From a virus, in the IMG/VR virus record IMGVR_UViG_3300044833_000182, positions 1 to 64,000 of that record: a DNA stretch of 64,000 nucleotides. One strand, given 5' to 3'. Below the pieces are notes generated by a model. The model searched no databases. It was not told where the DNA came from and saw only the letters and a program-made list of their open reading frames with translations. Position 1 is the stretch's first letter; every line of letters begins with the position of its first letter. Both the position numbers and the translations under genes were made by a program. Below, piece by piece: positions 2,965 through 46,570 of this stretch.

Positions 2965-3678
2965 ATGCTTACTTTGGCCAGCGGACAGGTTGCGGCGGCA
3001 GATGCTCCCGTGTACACGGTTGGCGCAGGCGTCAGCATCGTCTCTGCCATCTTCGATAACACCTCGGGTAGCACAACCGAGACTGTCGTCGTCAAACTGG
3101 TCGCCCTGGGCGCAACGGCGCGTCGCGTCGCCCGCGCCGTGCTCGCCCCCAACGAGCAACTGCTGATCCAGGGTTTGCCCATGTCGCCCGGGGACGTGCT
3201 GTCGGCGACGACCACGGACGCGACGACGGTGGACTACACCGTCTTCAGCAGCACTGGCGAGTTGCGCATGCAGACGCTCGACGCCAACGGGGCGCTCAAG
3301 GGCACGTCGGCCGGCGTCACGGGCAACCAGAGCGTCGGCGGTAAGCTGACGGCAAAACTGGTGGAGGTCGGCCCGCAGCCGGCCGACGTGTACGCGGCGA
3401 CGATGACCATTGACGTGACGTATGGGCTGCACATCGTCTCGGCAGTCAGCGGCACGTCGGCGACTTGCGCCATGACGCCATCCGCTGCCGGAACCGCCGG
3501 CGACGAGGTCACGATTGTCACCGAGGCCGATGCGTCCGGTACGGTGACGACTACTTACGCCTCGACGTTCCACTCCAGCGGCACACAGGCGACCACGGCG
3601 AGCCACAGCAGCAGCGTCACGTTCGTCAGTGACGGAGTAAAGTGGGTCGAGAAGTGCCGCACGACCAACCTGGCATAA
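2965..3678 (+). CDS. Thr/Ala/Val-rich putative virion protein
   Basis: Beta-rich composition, head region. Confidence 0.55.
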   Translation: MLTLASGQVAAADAPVYTVGAGVSIVSAIFDNTSGSTTETVVVKLVALGATARRVARAVLAPNEQLLIQGLPMSPGDVLSATTTDATTVDYTVFSSTGELRMQTLDANGALKGTSAGVTGNQSVGGKLTAKLVEVGPQPADVYAATMTIDVTYGLHIVSAVSGTSATCAMTPSAAGTAGDEVTIVTEADASGTVTTTYASTFHSSGTQATTASHSSSVTFVSDGVKWVEKCRTTNLA

Positions 3679-3689
3679 GAGGACAGTTC

Positions 3690-4046
3690 ATGATCCTTGC
3701 ACTGATCGATGTATCCCCGGCCGACCACGACGGCCGCACAAACCTGATCGCGAACCTGGAGCACGTCCAGACGATCACGCTGGAGGCTGACGGCCGACTG
3801 CTGCTGGCCATGACGGACGGGACGAAACTTCTGGCCGAACGCACCGAGGGGACGTGTGCGGTTCTCAACCGAGCGTGCAACGGCATTCAGGCGCAGTCCC
3901 GGCTGACGCCGCCGAAGGCGAAGGACGCGCCGAAGGATGGGCCGAAGGCCGACGCGAAGCCGGAACCCGTCCCGCCGCAATCGCCGCCGACCCCGGCGCC
4001 CGTACCGCACGCGCCGCCCCAGAGGCCCGCGAAGACGAAGGAGTAA
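3690..4046 (+). CDS. Hypothetical protein, Pro-rich C-terminus
   Basis: GAGGA RBS, ATG at 3690. Confidence 0.6.
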   Translation: MILALIDVSPADHDGRTNLIANLEHVQTITLEADGRLLLAMTDGTKLLAERTEGTCAVLNRACNGIQAQSRLTPPKAKDAPKDGPKADAKPEPVPPQSPPTPAPVPHAPPQRPAKTKE

Positions 4047-5145: not shown

Positions 5146-8100
5146 ATGACCCAGCTCCTGACCCGACCCGTGCGCCGCCGCCCGCTGGAGCCTGACGCTC
5201 TGGCGCTGCTGGCCGCGCGCGGATCAAATCAAGGAGACGGGTACTCTTACAAAATCGCTCCCGACGCCTACGCTCTCGACGCTCCCGCGTCGACAGAAGA
5301 TCCGGAGTTCAACGACCGCAGGCAAAGCATCACCTTCCCATTCGCTGCCAGTTTAGGGCGCGATCGCGTGGGCGATTGGCTGGACGTGGAGGGGATCGAC
5401 ACCCGGGCGCATCGTTTGTACCCAGTGGCGGCGCTCGACCATTTCAAATGGATGCGCTGGCCTTTGGGATTGACAGAAGATCCCGATAGTAGAGAATACA
5501 GGGTATGGATTGACGAAGACGCTGGCCTGGCGTGGTGCGAGGTCTTCATCAATTCACACGTCAAGGAGGCAGAGCAGGCTTTCAAGATGTTCCGCTCCAA
5601 GATATTGCGGGCGGGAAGCATCGGGTACAGGCCGCTTCGCGTGTCCAAACTCCCGGCCGATCCAGAGCAAGGGCAGTTGAAGCCGGGACTGACGCTGCAC
5701 GAGGTTGAACTCCTCGAAACAACGCTCGCCGTGTTACCCGCAAACGGCGATGCCGTCAGACGCTGCCTCATGGACGGCATCGAGGGCGAACCCCTCGCTG
5801 CGGGGTTCAAGTCGCTCCTCGCGCCTTTTGCAAGCGCCGCCCCGGAGATGGTTGTCGGCGGCTGGCAAACCAAGGACACGGCCCACAAACCAGCCGGCTC
5901 CTCCGAGGGCGGACAGTTCACCAGCGGCGGAGGGGGCGGCGCAGCGGCAACCACCGGCGCGCAGGCCAAGAAGAAGGAGAAACGCCGCGGCAGCGGCGGC
6001 ACATCAGCCCCCGCGCCTCGCCCGTCGCTCGCCCGTCGCGTAACGAGCGCCCTTGCCCGGCACGCCTCCACCATCGTCAAGGCGGGCCTGGGCGTCCCGA
6101 AGGAGAAACTCGCGGCCCTCTACCTGCACGTCCCGGAGTCGATGCGCGCCCCCGTGGGGAACCTCTGGCACGCAACGCACGCCGTGCTGATGTCCGCGAA
6201 CGCGGCAACGCAGGCGCTGGCCAAGCGGGTGATGGAAGACAAGGGCCTCGACGAGGCGGCAGTAACGAAGCTGGCGTGGCAGTTGGGCGCGGTGGACCTG
6301 GCGTTCCAGGGAACCATGATGGCAACGGCCATTGCGGCCGCCCCCGTGGCCCACGGCCTCGCGCTGGCGGCCAAGGCGGCGAGCTACTGCCCGGTGGCGA
6401 GCGCGGCCTACATCCTCCATGCCAGCGCGTCGCCGGGCAAGGCGATGAAGACGATCAAGAGCGCCTACGCTCTGCTCAAGGAGAAGTTCCTCGACCAGAT
6501 GCGCGGCAGCGCCGCCTTTGCCTGGGGTGCGGTGCGGAACCCGCTCACGTCGGCCGTCACCGTGGGCGCCGGCCACAAGACGGCGGGCGATTGGACGGAC
6601 GAGGGGGCGGCGCTGATCGCGGACGCCTACGCGGCGGCGGCGAACCCGGATATGTGGCTGGCGCTGTTCTCCGCGGCGTTCGACGACGTACGCGACGTGG
6701 CGGAAGCGGTGGAGATGGCGAACGCCTGCGCGGGAGAGGGCGGCTCACTGTCGGGTTCCGACAGTGAGAAGACGTTCCCCGGCAAGGCGGCGGACGGCGA
6801 GGTACACCGCTTTGCCTCGACGCAATTCGATCTTCCCGAGCCGATCCGTTCGCGCGTGCTGGAGCTGGCAGCGAAGATTCCCGACGAGGATCTCGCAGAG
6901 GATGGTCGCGAAGAACGCCCCCACATTACCGCACGCTTCGGGTTGCACGGGGATGACGGCGAGGACGGGGCGGCTGCTGTGCGCGGCGTTGTCGGCGGGT
7001 TCGGCCCGGTCAAGATCCGGCTTGGCGGTAAGTCGATCTTTGCCGGGGACGATTTCGACGTGGTGAAACTGGACGTGGAAGGCGACGATTTGCACCGTCT
7101 GCACGATGCGCTCGGCGACCTGAATCACATCGACACGCACCCGAAGTATCAGCCACACTGTACTTTGGCCTATGTCAAGCCGGGCATGGGCAAGAAGTAC
7201 ATCGGGAAGAGCGGGTTGGAGGGAGAGGAGGTTACTCTCGACAAGCTGGTGTACAGCGACCGCGAGCGGAACGAGACGGAGATTTTGCTGAAGGCCGACG
7301 GCAAGTCCTTCACCCCCTCCACCAAGGACGCCGTTGCCCCCTCGATGTCCGCGGGCGACATGACCACGGGCGGCGCGTTCATCGGCCCGGCGTCCTTCGG
7401 CAGGGGGATTACGCTTCATCGGGGCCGTCCCGCGATCCTGAAGCGCATCCGGCGGAAGAAACCGGGGCTTGCGGTGGGTAAGACGTTCGAGCCGGACGGC
7501 AAGACGGAGACGGCGCACAAACCCGCAGGCAGTCCCGAGGGCGGGCAGTTCACGACGGGAAGCGGAGGAGGCAGTAGCGCGGCTGGCGACGGTGGGAAGA
7601 AGCCGAAGAAGGCCGCGGCGAGCAAGGCGGAACCCGCCCCTCACCCCGGCAGCGTCCACGGCTCGGCCGTGACCGTCAAGCCGAGCAAGGAACGCGCCTG
7701 GGACGGCAAGCCGGCGCCGCTGAAGACGGCGCTCACAAAACAAGAGACTGGACAGGTGGGAGAAGCGGTGGCGCTGGCGTACCTCAAGAGCGTGATGGGC
7801 GCCGCCGACGCCCGGCCGCTGAATCTGGAGATGCCCAACGCGCCCATCGACTTGATCGAGGATCACGCGCCCACAGAAGTCAAGGCTGGACTCGCCGGGA
7901 ACAGCAAGAAAGCCCAGCAATGGCGACTGACGTTCTCCAAGGAGAGCGCGAAGGAAAAGGCGCTGTACGAGACGATGAGCAAGGAGGAGCGGGCGGCGTG
8001 GAACGCTCAGAAGCAGAAGCGCATCAAGGAACGAAAGGACGCGATGGTCAAGGTTCTGGAGAAGCGCACTGGGGGAAAGGTTAAGCCGCGTACACTCACC

Positions 8101-9121: not shown

Positions 9122-10525
9122 ATGCCAGGACTCATGGATCAGTTGACGGAGAACAACCGCAAGCTGGACGAACAGCGTGCGTTGATTCAGCAGGGGCGCG
9201 CCGCGCGCCACACCGGAGCGGTCCCCGACCGCGCGCCGCGCGCCCGCCGCGGCGAGAACATCATGTCCAGCCGGGGGTTTCAGATCGGCAAGGTGATCGG
9301 CGTCGTCGGCAAGAACGCCAAGATGCGTCGCGACGAAGCGAAGATCGAACTGGAATTCTGTGACCGGCTGAACAACCAGATGGCCGCGCAGGGCTGGCGC
9401 GGCGAGCACCCCGACGGCGTCCTCATTCCCATCTGGCCCGACGGCTTCGACGAGAAATCCCTCGACACGGCGACCTGGAAGGAGATGAAGGACCTCCTCT
9501 ATGCGGGCGTCGATGGGGCCGACGAAGGGGAGATGCAGTGGCTGCGCGGCCAGTACGGTCAGAAGGCCGCTATCTCTCCGTCGATGTCCTGGAACGACCA
9601 GACCACCGGCGGCAGCTTTGTTGGCCCGCCCACGTTCGGGCCGCCCATCGAACTCCTGCGGGCGAAAGAGGCCATGCTCCAGGCGGGGGCTTCCCTCGTC
9701 CCTCTGGGGCCGACGGGTTCGCTGGCCATGCCACGCCTCGCGGCCGCGACCACGGGCGGATGGATCGGCGAGAATACGCAGGCAAGCGCGACCCCGCCGA
9801 AGACCGGCTCGCTGCTCCTCCGCGCGAAGAAGGCGTTCGGCATCGTCGCGTTCGCGGCCGAATTCCTCCGCTTCGGTTCGCCCGCGGCCGAAATGATCGT
9901 CCGCAACGACCTCATGCTGACCGTGTCGCTCGTCGCCGATAAGGGTCTGCTCGACGGTCCCGGCTCGGACAACGTCCCCCTGGGTCTCGCCACGATGGGC
10001 GCCGCCGCGGGCAACCCCTACGGCATCACCATCGTCACGCCGGCCAACGCCAACCAGCTTGCCCCGCAGGACGTGTACAAGTTTATCAGCGGCATCGAGG
10101 AAGCCAATGGGACCATGACGGCGTGGATCATGCGCCCCTCCATGTGCTGGTCGATCTACGGCGCCCGCTGGACGCCCTACTCCGGCGGCACGTCTCAGGG
10201 CGGCTTCATGTTCGAACTGATGCGCGGCATGGGCGACGAGATGGACGCCTACCTGTCCGGCCACAAGGTCGTCCGCAGCACGCAGGTCAGCAACAACCGC
10301 GGCGTGACCGATCACTCGCGGACCTACATCCTCGGTCTGAACGGCCCCAACTACCTGATGGGCGTCTTCGGTGCAATCGAGGTGATGACCACCGCCGAGG
10401 GATGGAACCTCGTCAGTTCGGACCAGGTAGCCGTGAGGGCGCTGATGCACGTCGATGGGGGCATGCGCAACAACGCCGAGTGTGCTTTCATGGACCTGAT
10501 CAACCCTGCCGTCGTGGCTGGTTGA
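9122..10525 (+). CDS. Major capsid protein (HK97 fold)
   Basis: TGGSFVGP, IELLRAK, GWIGEN, DKGLLDGPGSDNVPLG, DQVAVRALMHVDGG. Confidence 0.9.
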   Translation: MPGLMDQLTENNRKLDEQRALIQQGRAARHTGAVPDRAPRARRGENIMSSRGFQIGKVIGVVGKNAKMRRDEAKIELEFCDRLNNQMAAQGWRGEHPDGVLIPIWPDGFDEKSLDTATWKEMKDLLYAGVDGADEGEMQWLRGQYGQKAAISPSMSWNDQTTGGSFVGPPTFGPPIELLRAKEAMLQAGASLVPLGPTGSLAMPRLAAATTGGWIGENTQASATPPKTGSLLLRAKKAFGIVAFAAEFLRFGSPAAEMIVRNDLMLTVSLVADKGLLDGPGSDNVPLGLATMGAAAGNPYGITIVTPANANQLAPQDVYKFISGIEEANGTMTAWIMRPSMCWSIYGARWTPYSGGTSQGGFMFELMRGMGDEMDAYLSGHKVVRSTQVSNNRGVTDHSRTYILGLNGPNYLMGVFGAIEVMTTAEGWNLVSSDQVAVRALMHVDGGMRNNAECAFMDLINPAVVAG

Positions 10526-13660: not shown

Positions 13661-14551
13661 GTGCCGTTGCAGCCGAATCCTGACCAGTTAACGTCCGCCC
13701 CTGCTGTCAAGGGTGTGCTCGGTATTGCCCAGAACGATCCGTCTTTCGATACGTTGCTTGGCATACTCATCAACGAAGCCAGCGCCTTGATTGGCGAGTC
13801 GCTGAACCGAGACGTTCTCCTGGCGAGCAATGCGGCCAACCCGATCACGGAGTTTCCCGTCGCTCGCGGCGGCGCCTGGCTGATGCTGGATAACGCGCCG
13901 ATCCAGGCGCCGATCCTCACCGGGACGACGGTTGCAGGGAGCGCGGTCGTGACAGGACTGTCAAGCACGCGATACCTCTTTCCCGGCCAGTGCGTCAGCG
14001 GAGTGAATCTGGCAAGCCAGGGCAGTTTCATCCTCAGCGTGGACAGCGCCTCGCAAGTCACGTTGAACGCGCCGGCAACGGCCAGCGGAACGGGTTCTCT
14101 GGTCTTCGGCATGGGTCTCTGGCTGGACAATGATGGGTATTACGGCTCGGTCCCGGGATCGTTCGGTGCCGGCACACAGCTTTTCGAGGGAAGCGATTTC
14201 GCGATTCCACGCGACGACACCGGCATGATCTTGCGGAGAAACGGCGTGTGGAACGTGCGATACACACGGGAGCGCGACGACCTGTCCGGGCAGCAAACAA
14301 CCGGCGGCGTGGGCAACATCAAGGCGATTTATTGCGCCGGCTGGCCGTCGGTTCCGGGCGACCTGGCTCTGGCCTGCGAACGGGTGATCGCGAAGGCGCG
14401 ACGGACGACGGCGTGGGGGGAGTTGTTGCAAACTCAGTCCTACGAGGGCGCTAGCTGGAGTGCGGTACAGAATGAGATGCGATTGGGCCTTCTTGGCGGC
14501 GACGTGGCGCCGATCCTGGCGCGGAGGCGGCTGTCGGGGTTGGGAGTGTAA
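13661..14551 (+). CDS. Head-tail connector (gp6-like) with inserted beta domain
   Basis: VKGVLGI..DTLLGILINEAS and IYCAGWPSVPGDLALAC. Confidence 0.65.
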   Translation: MPLQPNPDQLTSAPAVKGVLGIAQNDPSFDTLLGILINEASALIGESLNRDVLLASNAANPITEFPVARGGAWLMLDNAPIQAPILTGTTVAGSAVVTGLSSTRYLFPGQCVSGVNLASQGSFILSVDSASQVTLNAPATASGTGSLVFGMGLWLDNDGYYGSVPGSFGAGTQLFEGSDFAIPRDDTGMILRRNGVWNVRYTRERDDLSGQQTTGGVGNIKAIYCAGWPSVPGDLALACERVIAKARRTTAWGELLQTQSYEGASWSAVQNEMRLGLLGGDVAPILARRRLSGLGV

Positions 14552-14563
14552 AAGGAGGATGGC

Positions 14564-14947
14564 GTGGATCGGTTGCTTGCTCGCAACTTCTGGCTGACGA
14601 CCGTGCCAGGGCAGGAGGCTATGACCCTCCAATCCCGCACCAGCAACACCGCCTCCACGTTCGCGAGTTACGCCGTGCCGCGGGCGAAGAGGCGGCCGCT
14701 GACGGTAGCCGAGAGACAGATGGTGGGGGCGCTGCTGGGTACGGCGGAAATGGTCATCGAGGTATGGCGCGAGGCCCTTGACAACGCTGTGCCCGTCGCT
14801 CCGGCCGTTGCTCCCTGCCCGCGGCCGAAGCCAGGGGACGTGTGGACCGACACCTCGGGAATGAATTTGGTCATACTTCCCGCAGGAGTGGAAATGGGGT
14901 TGATGGACCAGAGGTTCAGGTGCTTCGTACAGCAAAAAACGGCGTGA
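14564..14947 (+). CDS. Putative head closure protein
   Basis: Position and size. Confidence 0.45.
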   Translation: MDRLLARNFWLTTVPGQEAMTLQSRTSNTASTFASYAVPRAKRRPLTVAERQMVGALLGTAEMVIEVWREALDNAVPVAPAVAPCPRPKPGDVWTDTSGMNLVILPAGVEMGLMDQRFRCFVQQKTA

Positions 14948-30863: not shown

Positions 30864-31160
30864 GTACGCCCAAGTACACCCGACGCCCGAATACACCGCG
30901 TTTCCAAACGACTTGCGGCGACGCGCGGCAGGCACGGCTCCTCTTGCTTTTTCCCGTCTCTCCGGCGTAAACTATCACCACTAACCACGTTCCAGCCGGC
31001 AGGGAGGCCGGACGAGTCAGGCGCCCGCATTGCCTCTTAATCAGCGGGTTGTAGGTTCGAGTCCTACGCGGGGCACTTCGCAAGATCAACCCTCTCTTGA
31101 TCTTGCGACAGCCGCAACAGCAGTCCGCCGCCTCCCGGCCCGGCGCGAAATGGTGTACTT
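30864..31160. repeat. Putative integrase arm-type sites
   Basis: GTACGCC (30864), AAGTACACC (30872), ATACACC (30891) and inverted GGTGTACTT (31152). Confidence 0.55.
31034..31075 (+). other. attP core: 3' half of tRNA-Lys(CTT)
   Basis: CTCTTAA-TCAGC-GGGTT-GTAGG-TTCGAGT-CCTAC-GCGGGGC-A; no 5' half upstream; next to integrase. Confidence 0.9.
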
Positions 31161-31196: not shown

Positions 31197-32525
31197 ATGA
31201 AAAAGCTACCCCGTCTGTGCATCCACCCTTCCAAGCAGCTCTACTACATCCGGATCGACCGCAAGCCCATCTATCTCGGGAAGGTCGGCGGTCCCGAAGA
31301 AGAGGCGAAGGCCGAAGCCGAACGGCTGCGCGTGCTGGGCGAGTTCCGGGCGACGGGTTCTTACTCCCGGCCGTCAGATTCGGGAGTGCTGATCGCCGTG
31401 CTCGTTGCTGCCTACATGCGCCACGTCGAGGTCCACTACCGCAAGAGGGACGGCCGGCCAACGAGTGAACAGCGGGTGATTGCCCTCGCCCTTCGGCCCC
31501 TGCTGGCCCGCTACGGTCACACGCGCGCCGCGGACTTCGGCCCGCGTGCGCTACAGGCTGTGCAGGCGCTCATGGTGGACGGCTCGTGGATGAGCGAGGC
31601 GGACAGGGAAAGAGCGGGCGAGCGGTACAAGGGGGGCTGGTGCCGGAAGCTCGTCAACGCGAACGTCAACCGGGTGCGGCGGATGTTTAAGTGGGGGGTG
31701 AGTCAGGAGTTGGTCCCCGCGACGGTGCTGGCCAGCCTGGAAACAGTGGCGCCGCTGCTGCAAGGACGGACGGCGGCCCGCGAGACGCGCGAGGTGCCGC
31801 CGGCCCCGCAGGAGTCGATTGACGCCGTACTGATGTACGCCTGCCGGCAGGTCGCCGACATGGTCCGGCTGCAACTCCTGACGGGAGCGCGACCCGGCGA
31901 GGCCGTGCGCGTGCGCCCGGTGGACCTGGACCGCAAGGGTGACGTGCTGGCCCGGGTGGTTGGCGAGGCTGTGCCGATGGGCAAGGTGTGGGTCTGGCTC
32001 CCCGGGCTGGAGGAAATCGAGGGGGCGCTCGAGCAGGACCACAAGACGACGCACCACGAACAGGACCGGGTGATCCCCGTCGGCCCGCAGGCTCAGGCGC
32101 TGCTGGCGCCGTACCTGGCCGGCCGCGATCCGGCTGCCCCGCTGTTCTCGCCTGCGGAGGCGCGAAAAGAGCGCAACGCTGCCCGGCGAGCGGCGCGAAA
32201 GACGCCCGTGCAGCCGTCGCAGCAGGACCGCAGCAAGAAGGACCCGGCGCGGAAGCCTGGCGAGCGCTGGACCACGGAGAGCTACGCTCACGCGATCGCC
32301 AGCGCGATCCGCAAGGCCAACCGGGCGCGAGCGGAGAAGGGACTGCCGCCCGTCGCTCACTTTCACCCTCATCAGCTTCGCCATAACGCGGCGGGAGAAC
32401 TGAAGCGGCAATTCGGCTGGGAAGTTGCCCGAATTGTCTGCGGCCATACGAGCGTCCAGACCACGTCGGGGTACGTCCAGCGCGATCTTCGCGCGGCTTT
32501 CGAGGCCGTTGAGAAGGTCGGTTGA
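31197..32525 (+). CDS. int: Tyrosine integrase
   Basis: TGARPGE, HKT, HQLRH, CGH, Y catalytic pattern. Confidence 0.92.
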   Translation: MKKLPRLCIHPSKQLYYIRIDRKPIYLGKVGGPEEEAKAEAERLRVLGEFRATGSYSRPSDSGVLIAVLVAAYMRHVEVHYRKRDGRPTSEQRVIALALRPLLARYGHTRAADFGPRALQAVQALMVDGSWMSEADRERAGERYKGGWCRKLVNANVNRVRRMFKWGVSQELVPATVLASLETVAPLLQGRTAARETREVPPAPQESIDAVLMYACRQVADMVRLQLLTGARPGEAVRVRPVDLDRKGDVLARVVGEAVPMGKVWVWLPGLEEIEGALEQDHKTTHHEQDRVIPVGPQAQALLAPYLAGRDPAAPLFSPAEARKERNAARRAARKTPVQPSQQDRSKKDPARKPGERWTTESYAHAIASAIRKANRARAEKGLPPVAHFHPHQLRHNAAGELKRQFGWEVARIVCGHTSVQTTSGYVQRDLRAAFEAVEKVG

Positions 32526-42541: not shown

Positions 42542-42997
42542 ATGACCCTGAACGAACAGCCGCCGCTCGACGCCGACCGCTGGGATGACGCCGCCTACCG
42601 CGACGAACTGCTGCTGCGCGTGCTCCCGGAGTGTCTCTGGGACGACGCGAGCGGAGACTACTCCACGCCAGAGGAGGCGAACAAGCGCGCCGAAGACTTC
42701 GTCGCGGAGGCCATGCGCCGCCGGGCGGCAAGGCGCAAGAAGCGGCAGACGGACGCGACCGGCGCAGACGACTCGCCCAGCTTCATCGGCGCGGCCATCC
42801 ACCGGATCGACGGCGAGGAGCGGCGGCGCCGCCGGGACGCGCGGCCGGACGCCGTGGCGGCGAGGCAGCAACGCCGCCACCCGTCATGGACGCCGCGACA
42901 AGGTCCGAAGCCATCTCCCTGTCCGGGCAGGAAGCGCTCGACGCGCTTCTCCGCGACCGGGAACGGCACAAGGCGATCCGTCGTCAGGAGCCGCTGA
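42542..42997 (+). CDS. Hypothetical protein
   Basis: AAGGA RBS. Confidence 0.5.
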   Translation: MTLNEQPPLDADRWDDAAYRDELLLRVLPECLWDDASGDYSTPEEANKRAEDFVAEAMRRRAARRKKRQTDATGADDSPSFIGAAIHRIDGEERRRRRDARPDAVAARQQRRHPSWTPRQGPKPSPCPGRKRSTRFSATGNGTRRSVVRSR

Positions 42998-43152
42998 ACA
43001 GCGAGCCCGAGCCGGACGGCCGGTGTGCGGCGGGCGAGTGCGAAGTGATCGAAGTGGTGGACCAGCGGGAAGAGGCGTTACAGTTCCGAATCGTCGGTGG
43101 GGGCGAGCCCGAGAATATCCCGCACCACTATGAGGCAGACTTGCGGGACTGA
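42886..43152 (+). CDS. Hypothetical acidic protein
   Basis: ATG 42886; overlaps previous ORF. Confidence 0.4.
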   Translation: MDAATRSEAISLSGQEALDALLRDRERHKAIRRQEPLNSEPEPDGRCAAGECEVIEVVDQREEALQFRIVGGGEPENIPHHYEADLRD

Positions 43153-43297
43153 GTCACGAGGAAGCGCTACCTGCGGCGTGCCACATTCGCGGTTCCTAGG
43201 TTATCGCGTCATAGGCGTCAGCAGGAACCCCCGGACGCCCGCCCATAACGGCGGGGCCGCGTCGAGAGGCGCGCCGTAGCGACGGTCGGGGGACTTT

Positions 43298-43409
43298 GCC
43301 CCTGTGCATGGTGCATTCGACGAACTACTGCCGGTCTGGGCGCTGGGGCCGAAACCCCGTGCGACCCCATTCCGGCAGCGTTGATCGGGTTCGATTCCCG
43401 GCCGGGGCC
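43298..43409 (+). ncRNA. tRNA-like RNA with extended arm
   Basis: Acceptor GCCCCTG/CCGGGGC, T-arm TCGGG-TTCGATT-CCCGG, long stem TCGACG..CTGCCGG/CCGGCAG-CGTTGA. Confidence 0.6.
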
Positions 43410-43435
43410 TGAACAGAACTACGGAGAAACCAGCT

Positions 43436-43978
43436 ATGGAACGCTCCCCACCCGACGCCCCCACGCTCTCCGACCTGGCCGGCCGCGCCCGCGAACTGGC
43501 CGACGCCCTCGCCGTGTCCCCGCCCTGCACGGAGGCGATAGCGGGGCGGGCGTCGTGCCTCTCTCTGAAGGAACAGGAGTGGCGGCGATTCCGAGACCTG
43601 CGCAACGTCCCCTCCCTGACGCTCTACCGCCGGTTCGGCGAGCACGACCTCTGCCAGCCGTGCCGCGCCTACTGGTTCGCCCGCCGCTGCGAGATGGTGG
43701 TGCAAGAGATGCTTGACGCCGCGCCGCCGCCAGAAGCGCCGGCCGTTGCGCCGCCCGCGTTCGACCCGGCAGCGTGGTTCCAGCAGACGCGGCCGGGGTT
43801 TCCCGTCGCCTGCTTGGGGGCGGTAATGGTTCTCCCCGCGATGACCGATTGCCCTCTCGGCTCCCTCGTCCCGCTGGCAGAGTGGCTCCTGGAGCAGCGG
43901 CCGGATTTAGAGGGGGCGATTCACACGGCCGTGCTGGAGCTGACGCGGAATGAGGATTTGAACGCGGCGGGGTGCTGA
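43436..43978 (+). CDS. Hypothetical protein
   Basis: GGAG RBS. Confidence 0.6.
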   Translation: MERSPPDAPTLSDLAGRARELADALAVSPPCTEAIAGRASCLSLKEQEWRRFRDLRNVPSLTLYRRFGEHDLCQPCRAYWFARRCEMVVQEMLDAAPPPEAPAVAPPAFDPAAWFQQTRPGFPVACLGAVMVLPAMTDCPLGSLVPLAEWLLEQRPDLEGAIHTAVLELTRNEDLNAAGC

Positions 43979-45432: not shown

Positions 45433-46049
45433 TGCCCGCCGCCGACTTGGCCCGCCGTTCCACCTGCCGCCCGGGACTGACGAGCCGCAGCTACCGCCGG
45501 GAGCACCCGTCGAAGGCGCTGGCCCCGGCCAGCGATTGCTGCCTGCTGGACGCGGCCCGACAGGAGAGGATCGCCCAGCACGCCGCCCGCCGCCGAGAGG
45601 GAATTGCCGTGACGCGACAATCGATCCTCGCCGAAGTGTCTGCCGAACGCGACCGTCAGGACCGCGACTACGGCGCCAGGCATGATGACGGCCTTCAGCG
45701 AAACGACTGGTCTGCCATCGCCGCCCGTCATCTCGGGCTCGCTTCCAGCGACGGCGCGGAGACGGACGCCGACCGCTGGCGTCGCCAACTCATCCGCCTC
45801 GCAGCCGTTGCCGTGGCCGCCATCGAGTCAGCCGACCGCAAGGGCCAATCTCACCCGGAACTGGCGGCACGATTGCAGGCGCTCGCCGATCAGCACTGCG
45901 AGCCCGTGTTGCTGCTGGCGGACGGTGCGCCCGGGATGGAGTACCGGTCGCGCACTCCCTACGGCGTGTTGCTGAGTCAGGCGAGCGGGTGGGAGAAGGC
46001 AAATCAGATGAGGACGATTGAGCCAACGAAAATGGAGGGCGTCTCGTGA
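45432..46049 (+). CDS. MazG-like helical protein (alternative GTG start 45609)
   Basis: EVSAERDRQD..W..RRQLIRLAAVAVAAIES. Confidence 0.5.
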   Translation: MPAADLARRSTCRPGLTSRSYRREHPSKALAPASDCCLLDAARQERIAQHAARRREGIAVTRQSILAEVSAERDRQDRDYGARHDDGLQRNDWSAIAARHLGLASSDGAETDADRWRRQLIRLAAVAVAAIESADRKGQSHPELAARLQALADQHCEPVLLLADGAPGMEYRSRTPYGVLLSQASGWEKANQMRTIEPTKMEGVS

Positions 46050-46570
46050 AACGCTGCCTTATTTACAGAGGCTTGCCGGGCGCCGGAAAAAGTACGGCGG
46101 TTCGCTGGCGTCGAGCATCCCTCGCCTGGGACGGCGTCGAGTTCGTGGTTTGCTCTTCAGACGATCACTTCATCGGGCCCGACGGCGTCTATCGCTTCGC
46201 GCTCGCCGAGTTGCCTGATGCTCACGCCGCATGTCAGCAGAAATGCCTGGACGCAATGGCCCGGGGCGTCAGCGTGGTCCTGATCGACAACACCAACGTC
46301 ACCGCGAGGGAGTGCAGGCCATACGTCGATCTCGCTCAGCGGTACGGCTACACCGTGGAGTTCGTCGAGCCCAGCACGCCGTGGGCGTTCGACCTGACGG
46401 AGTTGAGCAACCGCAACACGCACGGCGTTCCCTTGGCGACCCTCCAGCGGATGCTGTCGCGATGGGTTCCCGACATGACCGTGGAGAAGGCGCTGACGGC
46501 CGACCCCGCGCCTGGGAAGCCGACCAACGATGAACGATGCGCCGATCTCGCCCGGGAGGTGCGGAAATGA
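46046..46570 (+). CDS. P-loop kinase (AAA_33, N4BP2-like)
   Basis: RGLPGAGKST, SSDDHF, IDNTN, RNTHGVP. Confidence 0.85.
   Translation: MKRCLIYRGLPGAGKSTAVRWRRASLAWDGVEFVVCSSDDHFIGPDGVYRFALAELPDAHAACQQKCLDAMARGVSVVLIDNTNVTARECRPYVDLAQRYGYTVEFVEPSTPWAFDLTELSNRNTHGVPLATLQRMLSRWVPDMTVEKALTADPAPGKPTNDERCADLAREVRK

Follow-up and report, generated by a model that had tools for sequence, protein, structure and literature searches.

A non-decoding tRNA-shaped element with a long hairpin in place of the anticodon arm in the genome of an actinophage-like soil virus

The window analysed here is a stretch of 64,000 nucleotides, the first 64 kb of a 96,108-bp IMG/VR virus record (IMGVR_UViG_3300044833_000182; ~89% complete at 96 kb) from a soil metagenome, and the question that it raises near 43.3 kb is what a sequence with the acceptor stem and T arm of a tRNA, and with a long hairpin where the anticodon arm should be, is doing between two phage genes. 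The genome has a GC content of ~64% and bears nearly all of its genes on the + strand. Its portal protein is ~25% identical to the portals of mycobacteriophages and Arthrobacter phages, and a search of IMG/VR for relatives with the portal as bait found none. The source virus is a temperate, actinophage-like, uncultured soil phage and encodes a tyrosine integrase (PF00589) at 31197–32525.

The element is housed in a 283-nt gap between an ORF at 42631–43152 (TGA at 43150–43152) and an ATG at 43436, flanked by same-strand ORFs in a string of early and replication genes. The downstream ORF (43436–43978), for which a search for relatives found none, is preceded by a GGAG ribosome-binding site (site and ATG together at 43423–43438, + strand), and its ATG is 26 nt past the last base of the element. 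A coding origin of the gap was rejected, as the GC3 frame plot has no periodicity there. Searches for promoter and terminator consensus sequences found neither, and among sequencing runs we found no RNA run carrying the stretch, the sole run that carries it being a DNA soil metagenome, possibly the one from which the record came. Immediately upstream, within 42542–43152, the GC3 signal changes frame near 42850; an ORF at 42542–42997 is coding-like to ~42800 and the overlapping ORF at 42631–43152 is coding-like from ~42860, which could reflect two overlapping genes, a frameshift, or an assembly error. An enrichment of the AACTAC motif was considered and dropped because the occurrences mostly correspond to coding Asn-Tyr codons.

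The tRNA-like element is 112 nt long and occupies 43298–43409 on the + strand. The 5' strand of its acceptor stem (GCCCCTG, 43298–43304) has TTT at positions -3 to -1 and pairs with 43402–43408 at six of the seven positions, the exception being a U.C mismatch at pair 6. The 3' strand, CCGGGGC, together with the discriminator C43409, makes up 43402–43409; the next bases are TGA, and CCA is not encoded. T43305 occupies the position of U8 and is followed by a minimal D-like hairpin, TGCA-TGG-TGCA (43305–43316, with the hairpin itself at 43305–43315), which has GG in its 3-nt loop. An interrupted hairpin of 68 nt (43317–43384) then replaces the anticodon arm, consisting of the helices TCGACG/CGTTGA and CTGCCGG/CCGGCAG, a 5-nt bulge (AACTA), and a tip, GGGG-CCGAAA-CCCC, with the 6-nt loop CCGAAA. 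There is no variable region, and the hairpin is directly followed by a canonical T arm, TCGGG-TTCGATT-CCCGG (43385–43401). An earlier note on this DNA, made from the sequence alone, had described an RNA that mimics a tRNA but has a long arm substituted for the anticodon arm, and its account of the parts stands: the acceptor stem with one mismatch was recovered by direct reading and by folding, the D hairpin by reading and in the minimum free energy fold, the T arm with its TTCGATT loop by direct reading, and the interrupted stem without a 7-nt anticodon loop as an arm that folds with a z-score of -4.78 on its own.

The cloverleaf-like structure is the RNAfold minimum free energy fold of the 112 nt (-57.8 kcal/mol, z -3.45), and only 1 of 200 shuffled sequences folds equally well. 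Both the + and the - strands fold well; what sets the + strand apart is its T loop and its G.U pairs, and we therefore take it to be the meaningful one. Motif counts are less telling, with a perfect T arm alone expected ~0.2 times per genome of like size and composition (an estimate) and a loose scan for a T arm plus acceptor giving 0.26 matches per shuffled genome. The significance of the element thus rests not on motif counts but on the whole fold and on the conservation of its ends in a second viral contig, described below. The long arm has no second copy in the phage genome, and an origin from a repeat or MITE was rejected on this basis.

In the sequence upstream, the earlier note had seen a hairpin (43191–43229) and a four-way junction (~43228–43292) as parts of a larger RNA. 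This non-coding stretch (43153–43297, + strand), which contains the hairpin and several small GC-rich ones, has a folding z-score of -0.67, with 54 of 200 shuffles folding equally well, and in a 231-nt fold it competes with the acceptor pairing. Upstream of the second copy of the element there is no counterpart of the hairpin or the junction region. Neither structure is supported as a member of the element, and the same holds for a larger RNA that includes 43191–43297.

We then asked whether the element belongs to a known class. ARAGORN at default settings calls no tRNA or tmRNA gene in the window or in the 96-kb genome, and an Rfam search of the element matches no family at the gathering score; within the tRNA clan the highest score, 18.3 bits, is that of tRNA-Sec (threshold 47), and this match takes as its 5' strand an inner one that differs from that of the element. 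An ordinary tRNA was rejected because the element has no 5-bp stem and 7-nt loop with U33 and an anticodon, with a 68-nt hairpin and a 6-nt tip loop there instead. An intron-containing tRNA was also rejected, as ARAGORN with introns allowed (-i) calls nothing at the element at default thresholds, and direct reading of the long arm reveals no bulge-helix-bulge motif; when the thresholds are lowered to 70%, a tRNA-Phe(gaa) with a 24-nt intron is forced, with a score of 90. A tmRNA was rejected on several grounds: the third acceptor pair is by direct reading C3-G70, so that the G3-U70 pair is absent, as the earlier note had it; the element, at 112 nt, is too short, as that note also said; there is no tag reading frame and there are no pseudoknots; and ARAGORN -m and the Rfam tmRNA models are negative. 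YrlA was likewise rejected, the Rfam models giving no match and the TROVE/Rsr protein (PF05731) not being found in the 96-kb, ~89% complete record. The element cannot be a translation adaptor.

Pattern scans of IMG/VR yielded one true counterpart, on the minus strand of another viral contig (L002, IMGVR_UViG_3300045996_002447, 3236–3345). At the 5' end the 9-mer CTTTGCCCC, comprising the TTT leader and acceptor 5' strand, is identical in the two copies, and at the 3' end, which includes the T arm, the acceptor 3' strand, and the discriminator C, 27 of 28 bases are identical (blastn E 8e-6). The lone difference is a change of U49 to C49, which converts a U.G to a C-G pair and so preserves pairing in the T stem. 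The distant 5' strand and the 3' end are similarly spaced (85 versus 78 nt), whereas the interiors of ~80 nt, long arm included, cannot be aligned, and a loose GG.TGCATT.GAC similarity after the acceptor is the only likeness of a D region in L002. The acceptor mismatch in L002 is at pair 7, as compared with pair 6 in the window element. Inner 5' strands that could alternatively pair with the 3' strand are present in both (43340–43346 in the window, and GUCCCGG in L002), and the unconstrained minimum free energy fold of the L002 copy lacks the T arm, at -55.2 versus -51.8 kcal/mol for the constrained fold.

The L002 copy follows a gene for a gp32-like single-stranded DNA-binding protein and is 35 nt ahead of the next ATG, and its neighbours also include genes for a clamp loader and a RecA-like protein. 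The gp32-like protein has homologs, and a comparison with cultured phages gave no match. Apart from the element, the only gene common to the two contigs is a DNA methylase a few kb upstream, with ~50% amino-acid identity, and none of three loci examined among methylase-sharing relatives has the element. That two phages so far apart have the same ends around interiors that cannot be aligned points to selection on the top half, and from the two copies compared, selection seems to act on the acceptor and T arm together with the U-rich leader at -1 to -3. One caution is that the 3' 21-mer also ends cellular tRNA genes of several lineages, such that recombination with host tRNA genes could keep the 21-mer identical without any function at the RNA level. 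In two of the methylase-sharing contigs (L007 and L008, ~14400–14700), we observed a T-loop-bearing 3' piece ending in TCCCCCAG that is followed ~20 nt on by CTGGGGGA and a D-arm-like sequence. ARAGORN makes no call in this region, which is cut by the end of the locus and might represent one permuted tRNA or else two unusual tRNAs in tandem.

Related architectures are found elsewhere among viruses. When matches from IMG/VR pattern scans are restricted to those with an unbroken T stem, six or more of the 7 acceptor pairs, and no ARAGORN call, dozens of long tRNA-like elements remain in unrelated viral contigs, with at least 38 candidates in one scan. These are a mix of attP sites with arm-type repeats, tRNA genes with inserts of 20–50 nt, and elements built like the phage element. 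Three ARAGORN-negative examples of the last kind combine the acceptor, D arm, and T arm with a closed arm of ~55 nt: L280 (~3576–3690, minus strand, 111 nt), L356 (427–539, 112 nt, also with a discriminator C), and L299 (3751–3863, 113 nt). Elements of this group are 110–160 nt long; L265 (~3360–3519) is another ARAGORN-negative one, and a further one, in L271 (~9700–9840), is ~30 nt upstream of a real tRNA-Met. With an intact acceptor/T-arm top half, a non-decoding structure at the place of the anticodon arm, and a phage genome encoding it, the window element falls by its build into an informal class, that of anticodon-less tRNA-scaffold RNAs of phages, which corresponds to no curated family. 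It is a loosely known, poorly annotated kind of phage RNA.

The 21-mer GGTTCGATTCCCGGCCGGGGC in the conserved 3' end was examined separately. Among the matches listed, it is the exact 3' end of tRNA-Arg(CCG) genes in metagenome-assembled genomes (MAGs) of Binatia and 'delta-proteobacteria', also ends a few archaeal tRNAs, and is frequent in att-type isolated 3' fragments in metagenomes; most of the matches listed from metagenome and genome pattern scans are genuine tRNA-Arg genes, att scars, or members of a SINE-like family of eukaryotes. Because it occurs in cellular tRNAs, the 21-mer in itself is an ordinary GC-rich tRNA top half. The same 21-mer is present in mini helices of ~45 nt, consisting of an acceptor plus T arm, in a Streptomyces sp. 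contig (L131) and in a metagenome (L041), for example AGCCCCG-ATGGTCTTCGGG-CCGGG TTCGATT CCCGG-CCGGGGC, from which the D and anticodon region is absent.

The 21-mer is also the 3' end of a conserved, non-decoding 70-nt tRNA-like RNA with a cloverleaf-like fold, encoded in the chromosomes of Acidimicrobiia MAGs. In an alignment of 29 distinct copies (L196:7821–7894 and L208:2105–2178, both + strand, and 27 further loci), four helices have 98% of cells paired, compared with 89% in shuffles and 40–52% in slid controls, and there are compensatory changes at 7 pairs. Its acceptor measures 7 to 9 bp, and its D-like hairpin has 3 bp and a UGGAY loop. Its arm covaries and bears a 9-nt loop in which UGAC is invariant; a variable loop is lacking, and the T arm and 3' acceptor strand are those of the phage element. 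Neither ARAGORN nor Rfam makes a call on it, and a tmRNA was rejected because a normal one is encoded at another place in the same genomes. When 180 kb of phage DNA was searched with a covariance model (R1) built on this RNA, the top two matches were the L002 copy, at 32.1 bits, and the window element, at 27.5. Both depend on the T arm and 3' strand, which are identical, and on an inner 5' strand, not on the one conserved between the phages, and they are therefore not independent evidence for kinship. Of 61 genomes sampled from the class, the model detected the RNA in only 1, a figure to be read with the low sensitivity of the search.

Several features surround the Acidimicrobiia RNA, which may merit a study of its own. 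It is followed by a long terminator-like hairpin, and ~75 nt upstream there is a direct copy of the 5' strand and loop of its arm. This copy is the same within a genome and differs between genomes, a pattern that makes an alternative pairing possible on sequence grounds. One genome (G001) has two copies of the RNA. In L208 (60–133 and 1720–1918, minus strand) a group II intron (RF00029, RF02001) is located directly after a GGGGCC-CGAA-GGCCCC hairpin that precedes the Acidimicrobiia RNA, a position that fits the hairpin being a terminator.

The phage carries two further sequences derived from, or resembling, tRNAs. The attP site (31021–31078), just upstream of the integrase gene, matches a tRNA-Lys(CTT) over its 3' half, anticodon loop included; a near-identical tRNA-Lys 3' half is found in another viral contig (L330), and a search of 301 sampled Acidimicrobiia genomes and 5 others did not turn up the attP core. 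The window element was rejected as an attP because the integrase has its own tRNA-Lys attP at 31 kb, 12 kb away, and because its 5' strand is conserved in L002. A second tRNA-like element lies beyond the window at 71487–71613 (+ strand), 7487–7613 past the window end (L412:7487–7613). Its acceptor is GCCCGGT/GCCGGGC, its D loop contains a hairpin of ~56 nt, its arm, CCGGC-AACUAA-GCCGG, has a 6-nt loop, and its T arm is mismatched at one position. ARAGORN makes no call there at default settings, and the -i option gives a spurious tRNA-Pyl with a 1856-nt intron ending at this element.

The element is a real and probably selected non-decoding tRNA-shaped element, and it is most likely a handle for host tRNA-processing enzymes. 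The conserved part is what RNase P, 3'-end nucleases, the CCA-adding enzyme, and T-loop modification enzymes read, and on this basis we propose, as the reading we prefer at somewhat less than an even chance, that it is a tRNA-scaffold RNA cut from an early transcript by RNase P and 3'-end enzymes. The top half would be read by the host maturation enzymes, and RNase P would cut between U43297 and G43298. Bacterial RNase P prefers a U at -1. A 3' nuclease would trim after C43409 and the CCA-adding enzyme would cap the end, releasing a stable RNA of ~112 nt (~115 nt with CCA) in which the long arm would be a variable 'cargo'. The same cuts would split the polycistronic transcript and leave the downstream ORF with a 26-nt leader containing its GGAG site. 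A role of the long arm in trans, as a decoy or a protein-binding hairpin, is a speculative possibility. The earlier note had offered two functional ideas, an RNase P/Z processing signal and a decoy for anticodon nucleases. The former is the better fit, given that the conserved part is the acceptor/T-arm top half with its U-rich leader and that the element is within a same-strand gene string 26 nt ahead of a start codon. The decoy idea found no support, as the element offers an anticodon nuclease no anticodon loop and the AAA_33 gene downstream is a weak candidate for a tRNA-repair or nuclease partner.

Other explanations must be weighed against excision as a scaffold RNA. The element could be a decaying tRNA gene, its anticodon region broken by an inserted or expanded hairpin, now drifting and without function. 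The degenerate D arm, the missing anticodon loop, the acceptor mismatch, and the tRNA-Phe that ARAGORN can be forced to call are all consistent with this, as are the damaged-looking element at 71487–71613, with its D-loop insert and T-stem mismatch, and the fact that insert-bearing tRNA genes are common in viral contigs. However, 9 plus 27 identical bases at the ends are unexpected under neutrality when the interiors are unalignable and the shared protein is ~50% identical. The long arm is moreover a near-perfect, very stable hairpin and not a repeat or MITE, and the default ARAGORN result is negative even with introns, so that we regard decay as unlikely. Chance resemblance in GC-rich intergenic DNA would account for the good folding, which such sequence achieves anyway, and for a match rate like that of the loose scan in shuffled genomes, but it does not readily yield a full T-loop consensus with G53-C61 and a 5-bp stem directly beside a complementary acceptor strand, nor the z-score of the fold or the conservation of both ends in L002, and it is highly improbable. 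The element could also act at the DNA level, as a 3' piece of a tRNA gene, or of a tRNA-like one, that was acquired from a cell and is used for attachment or recombination, be it as a secondary or an ancestral site; its 5' pairing would then be fortuitous. This is suggested by the exact match of the 21-mer to tRNA-Arg(CCG) ends and the frequent isolated 3' fragments among the listed metagenome matches. A 5-bp GCCCC complement within 100 nt is also not rare in GC-rich DNA (~0.3, an estimate), and the remnants of tRNAs that integration leaves behind are known to give rise to false tRNA-like calls (PMC9897764). This explanation is very unlikely, since the integrase already has an adjacent attP 12 kb off, no recombinase is encoded near 43.3 kb or near the L002 copy, and an att core leaves unexplained why the 5' 9-mer with its TTT leader is conserved at similar spacing.

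Two remaining explanations assign the RNA itself a different main role. As a trans-acting decoy or sponge, a broader form of the first idea of the earlier note, it would occupy a host factor that reads the tRNA elbow or acceptor end, such as a tRNA-targeting defence toxin or the partner of a tRNA-like RNA of the host. The top half is sequence-identical to that of the covariation-supported Acidimicrobiia RNA, two tRNA-like elements are kept in a phage genome in which no real tRNA was called, and a kinase-like AAA_33 ORF located 2.6 kb downstream (46046–46570) has PHROG matches, though weak ones, to polynucleotide kinase and to RNA ligase. Yet no partner protein was found, an anticodon nuclease would find no anticodon loop, the model R1 matches the phage elements only by the shared T arm and a different 5' strand, and the phage attP core was not found in the Acidimicrobiia and other genomes sampled; we consider this role distinctly unlikely. 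More doubtful still is that the undescribed 70-nt host RNA family gave rise to both the window element and that of L002 as expanded phage versions, the phage using its copy to compete for or supply the host factor that this RNA serves. The likenesses behind this proposal are the T arm, the 3' acceptor strand, the mini D hairpin with a UGG loop, and the lack of a variable loop, and if true it would constitute a new kind of virus-host pair of tRNA mimics.

A top half on which selection appears to act, with an arm free to vary, is the pattern to be expected if a stable small RNA were made on a natural tRNA scaffold, or if the element served as punctuation within a viral operon. Tools for phage tRNA annotation discard anything that lacks an anticodon loop, and non-decoding tRNA-shaped RNAs are consequently invisible in current annotation. 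Should the released RNA act in trans, on host defence or on a host tRNA-like RNA partner, it would represent a new class of phage-host RNA mimicry, and even with no such action it would be a useful marker for better annotation of non-coding RNAs in viromes.

The element shares features with several known systems. With phage tRNA genes it has in common the acceptor stem, U8, the GG of the D loop, the T arm, and a 3' 21-mer equal to that of tRNA-Arg(CCG), and it differs in having no 7-nt anticodon loop or variable region, a D loop of 3 nt, and a length of 112 nt. The tRNA-like domain of tmRNA is similar in its acceptor stem, its T arm of the CCGGG-UUCGAUU-CCCGG type, its reduced D region, and the long interrupted helix at the place of the anticodon arm, whereas tmRNA is ~350 nt long (about 300–400), with a G3-U70 pair, a tag frame, and pseudoknots, and the phage element is 112 nt with no encoded CCA. 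Among viral RNAs, RNAC and RNAD of phage T4 have tRNA-like features, and the herpesvirus MHV68 makes tRNA-like/hairpin transcripts. These small RNAs include a tRNA-like module or are attached to one, and tRNA enzymes carry out their maturation; they have no sequence relation to the phage element, whose hairpin is inside the tRNA frame and not downstream of it, and whose host is bacterial. The T4 RNAs are stable, are encoded beside tRNA genes, and have a function that is still not known (PMC9697503). The mascRNA module at the 3' end of MALAT1 (RF01684) is a tRNA-like signal for cutting by RNase P and Z within a longer transcript, with a non-decoding product, but it is eukaryotic, and the phage element scores 14.5 bits against its Rfam threshold of 42.5. 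The bacterial Y RNAs of the YrlA type are non-decoding and have an acceptor-like stem, a D-like element, and a T arm (PMC4201824); YrlA ends in a Ro-binding stem and its gene is beside rsr, whereas the phage RNA would end at the acceptor and its arm is closed. As a precedent for the proposed mechanism, the YrlA of M. smegmatis has a 7-bp acceptor-like stem, is cleaved by RNase P, and has CCA added in vivo (PMC4201824).
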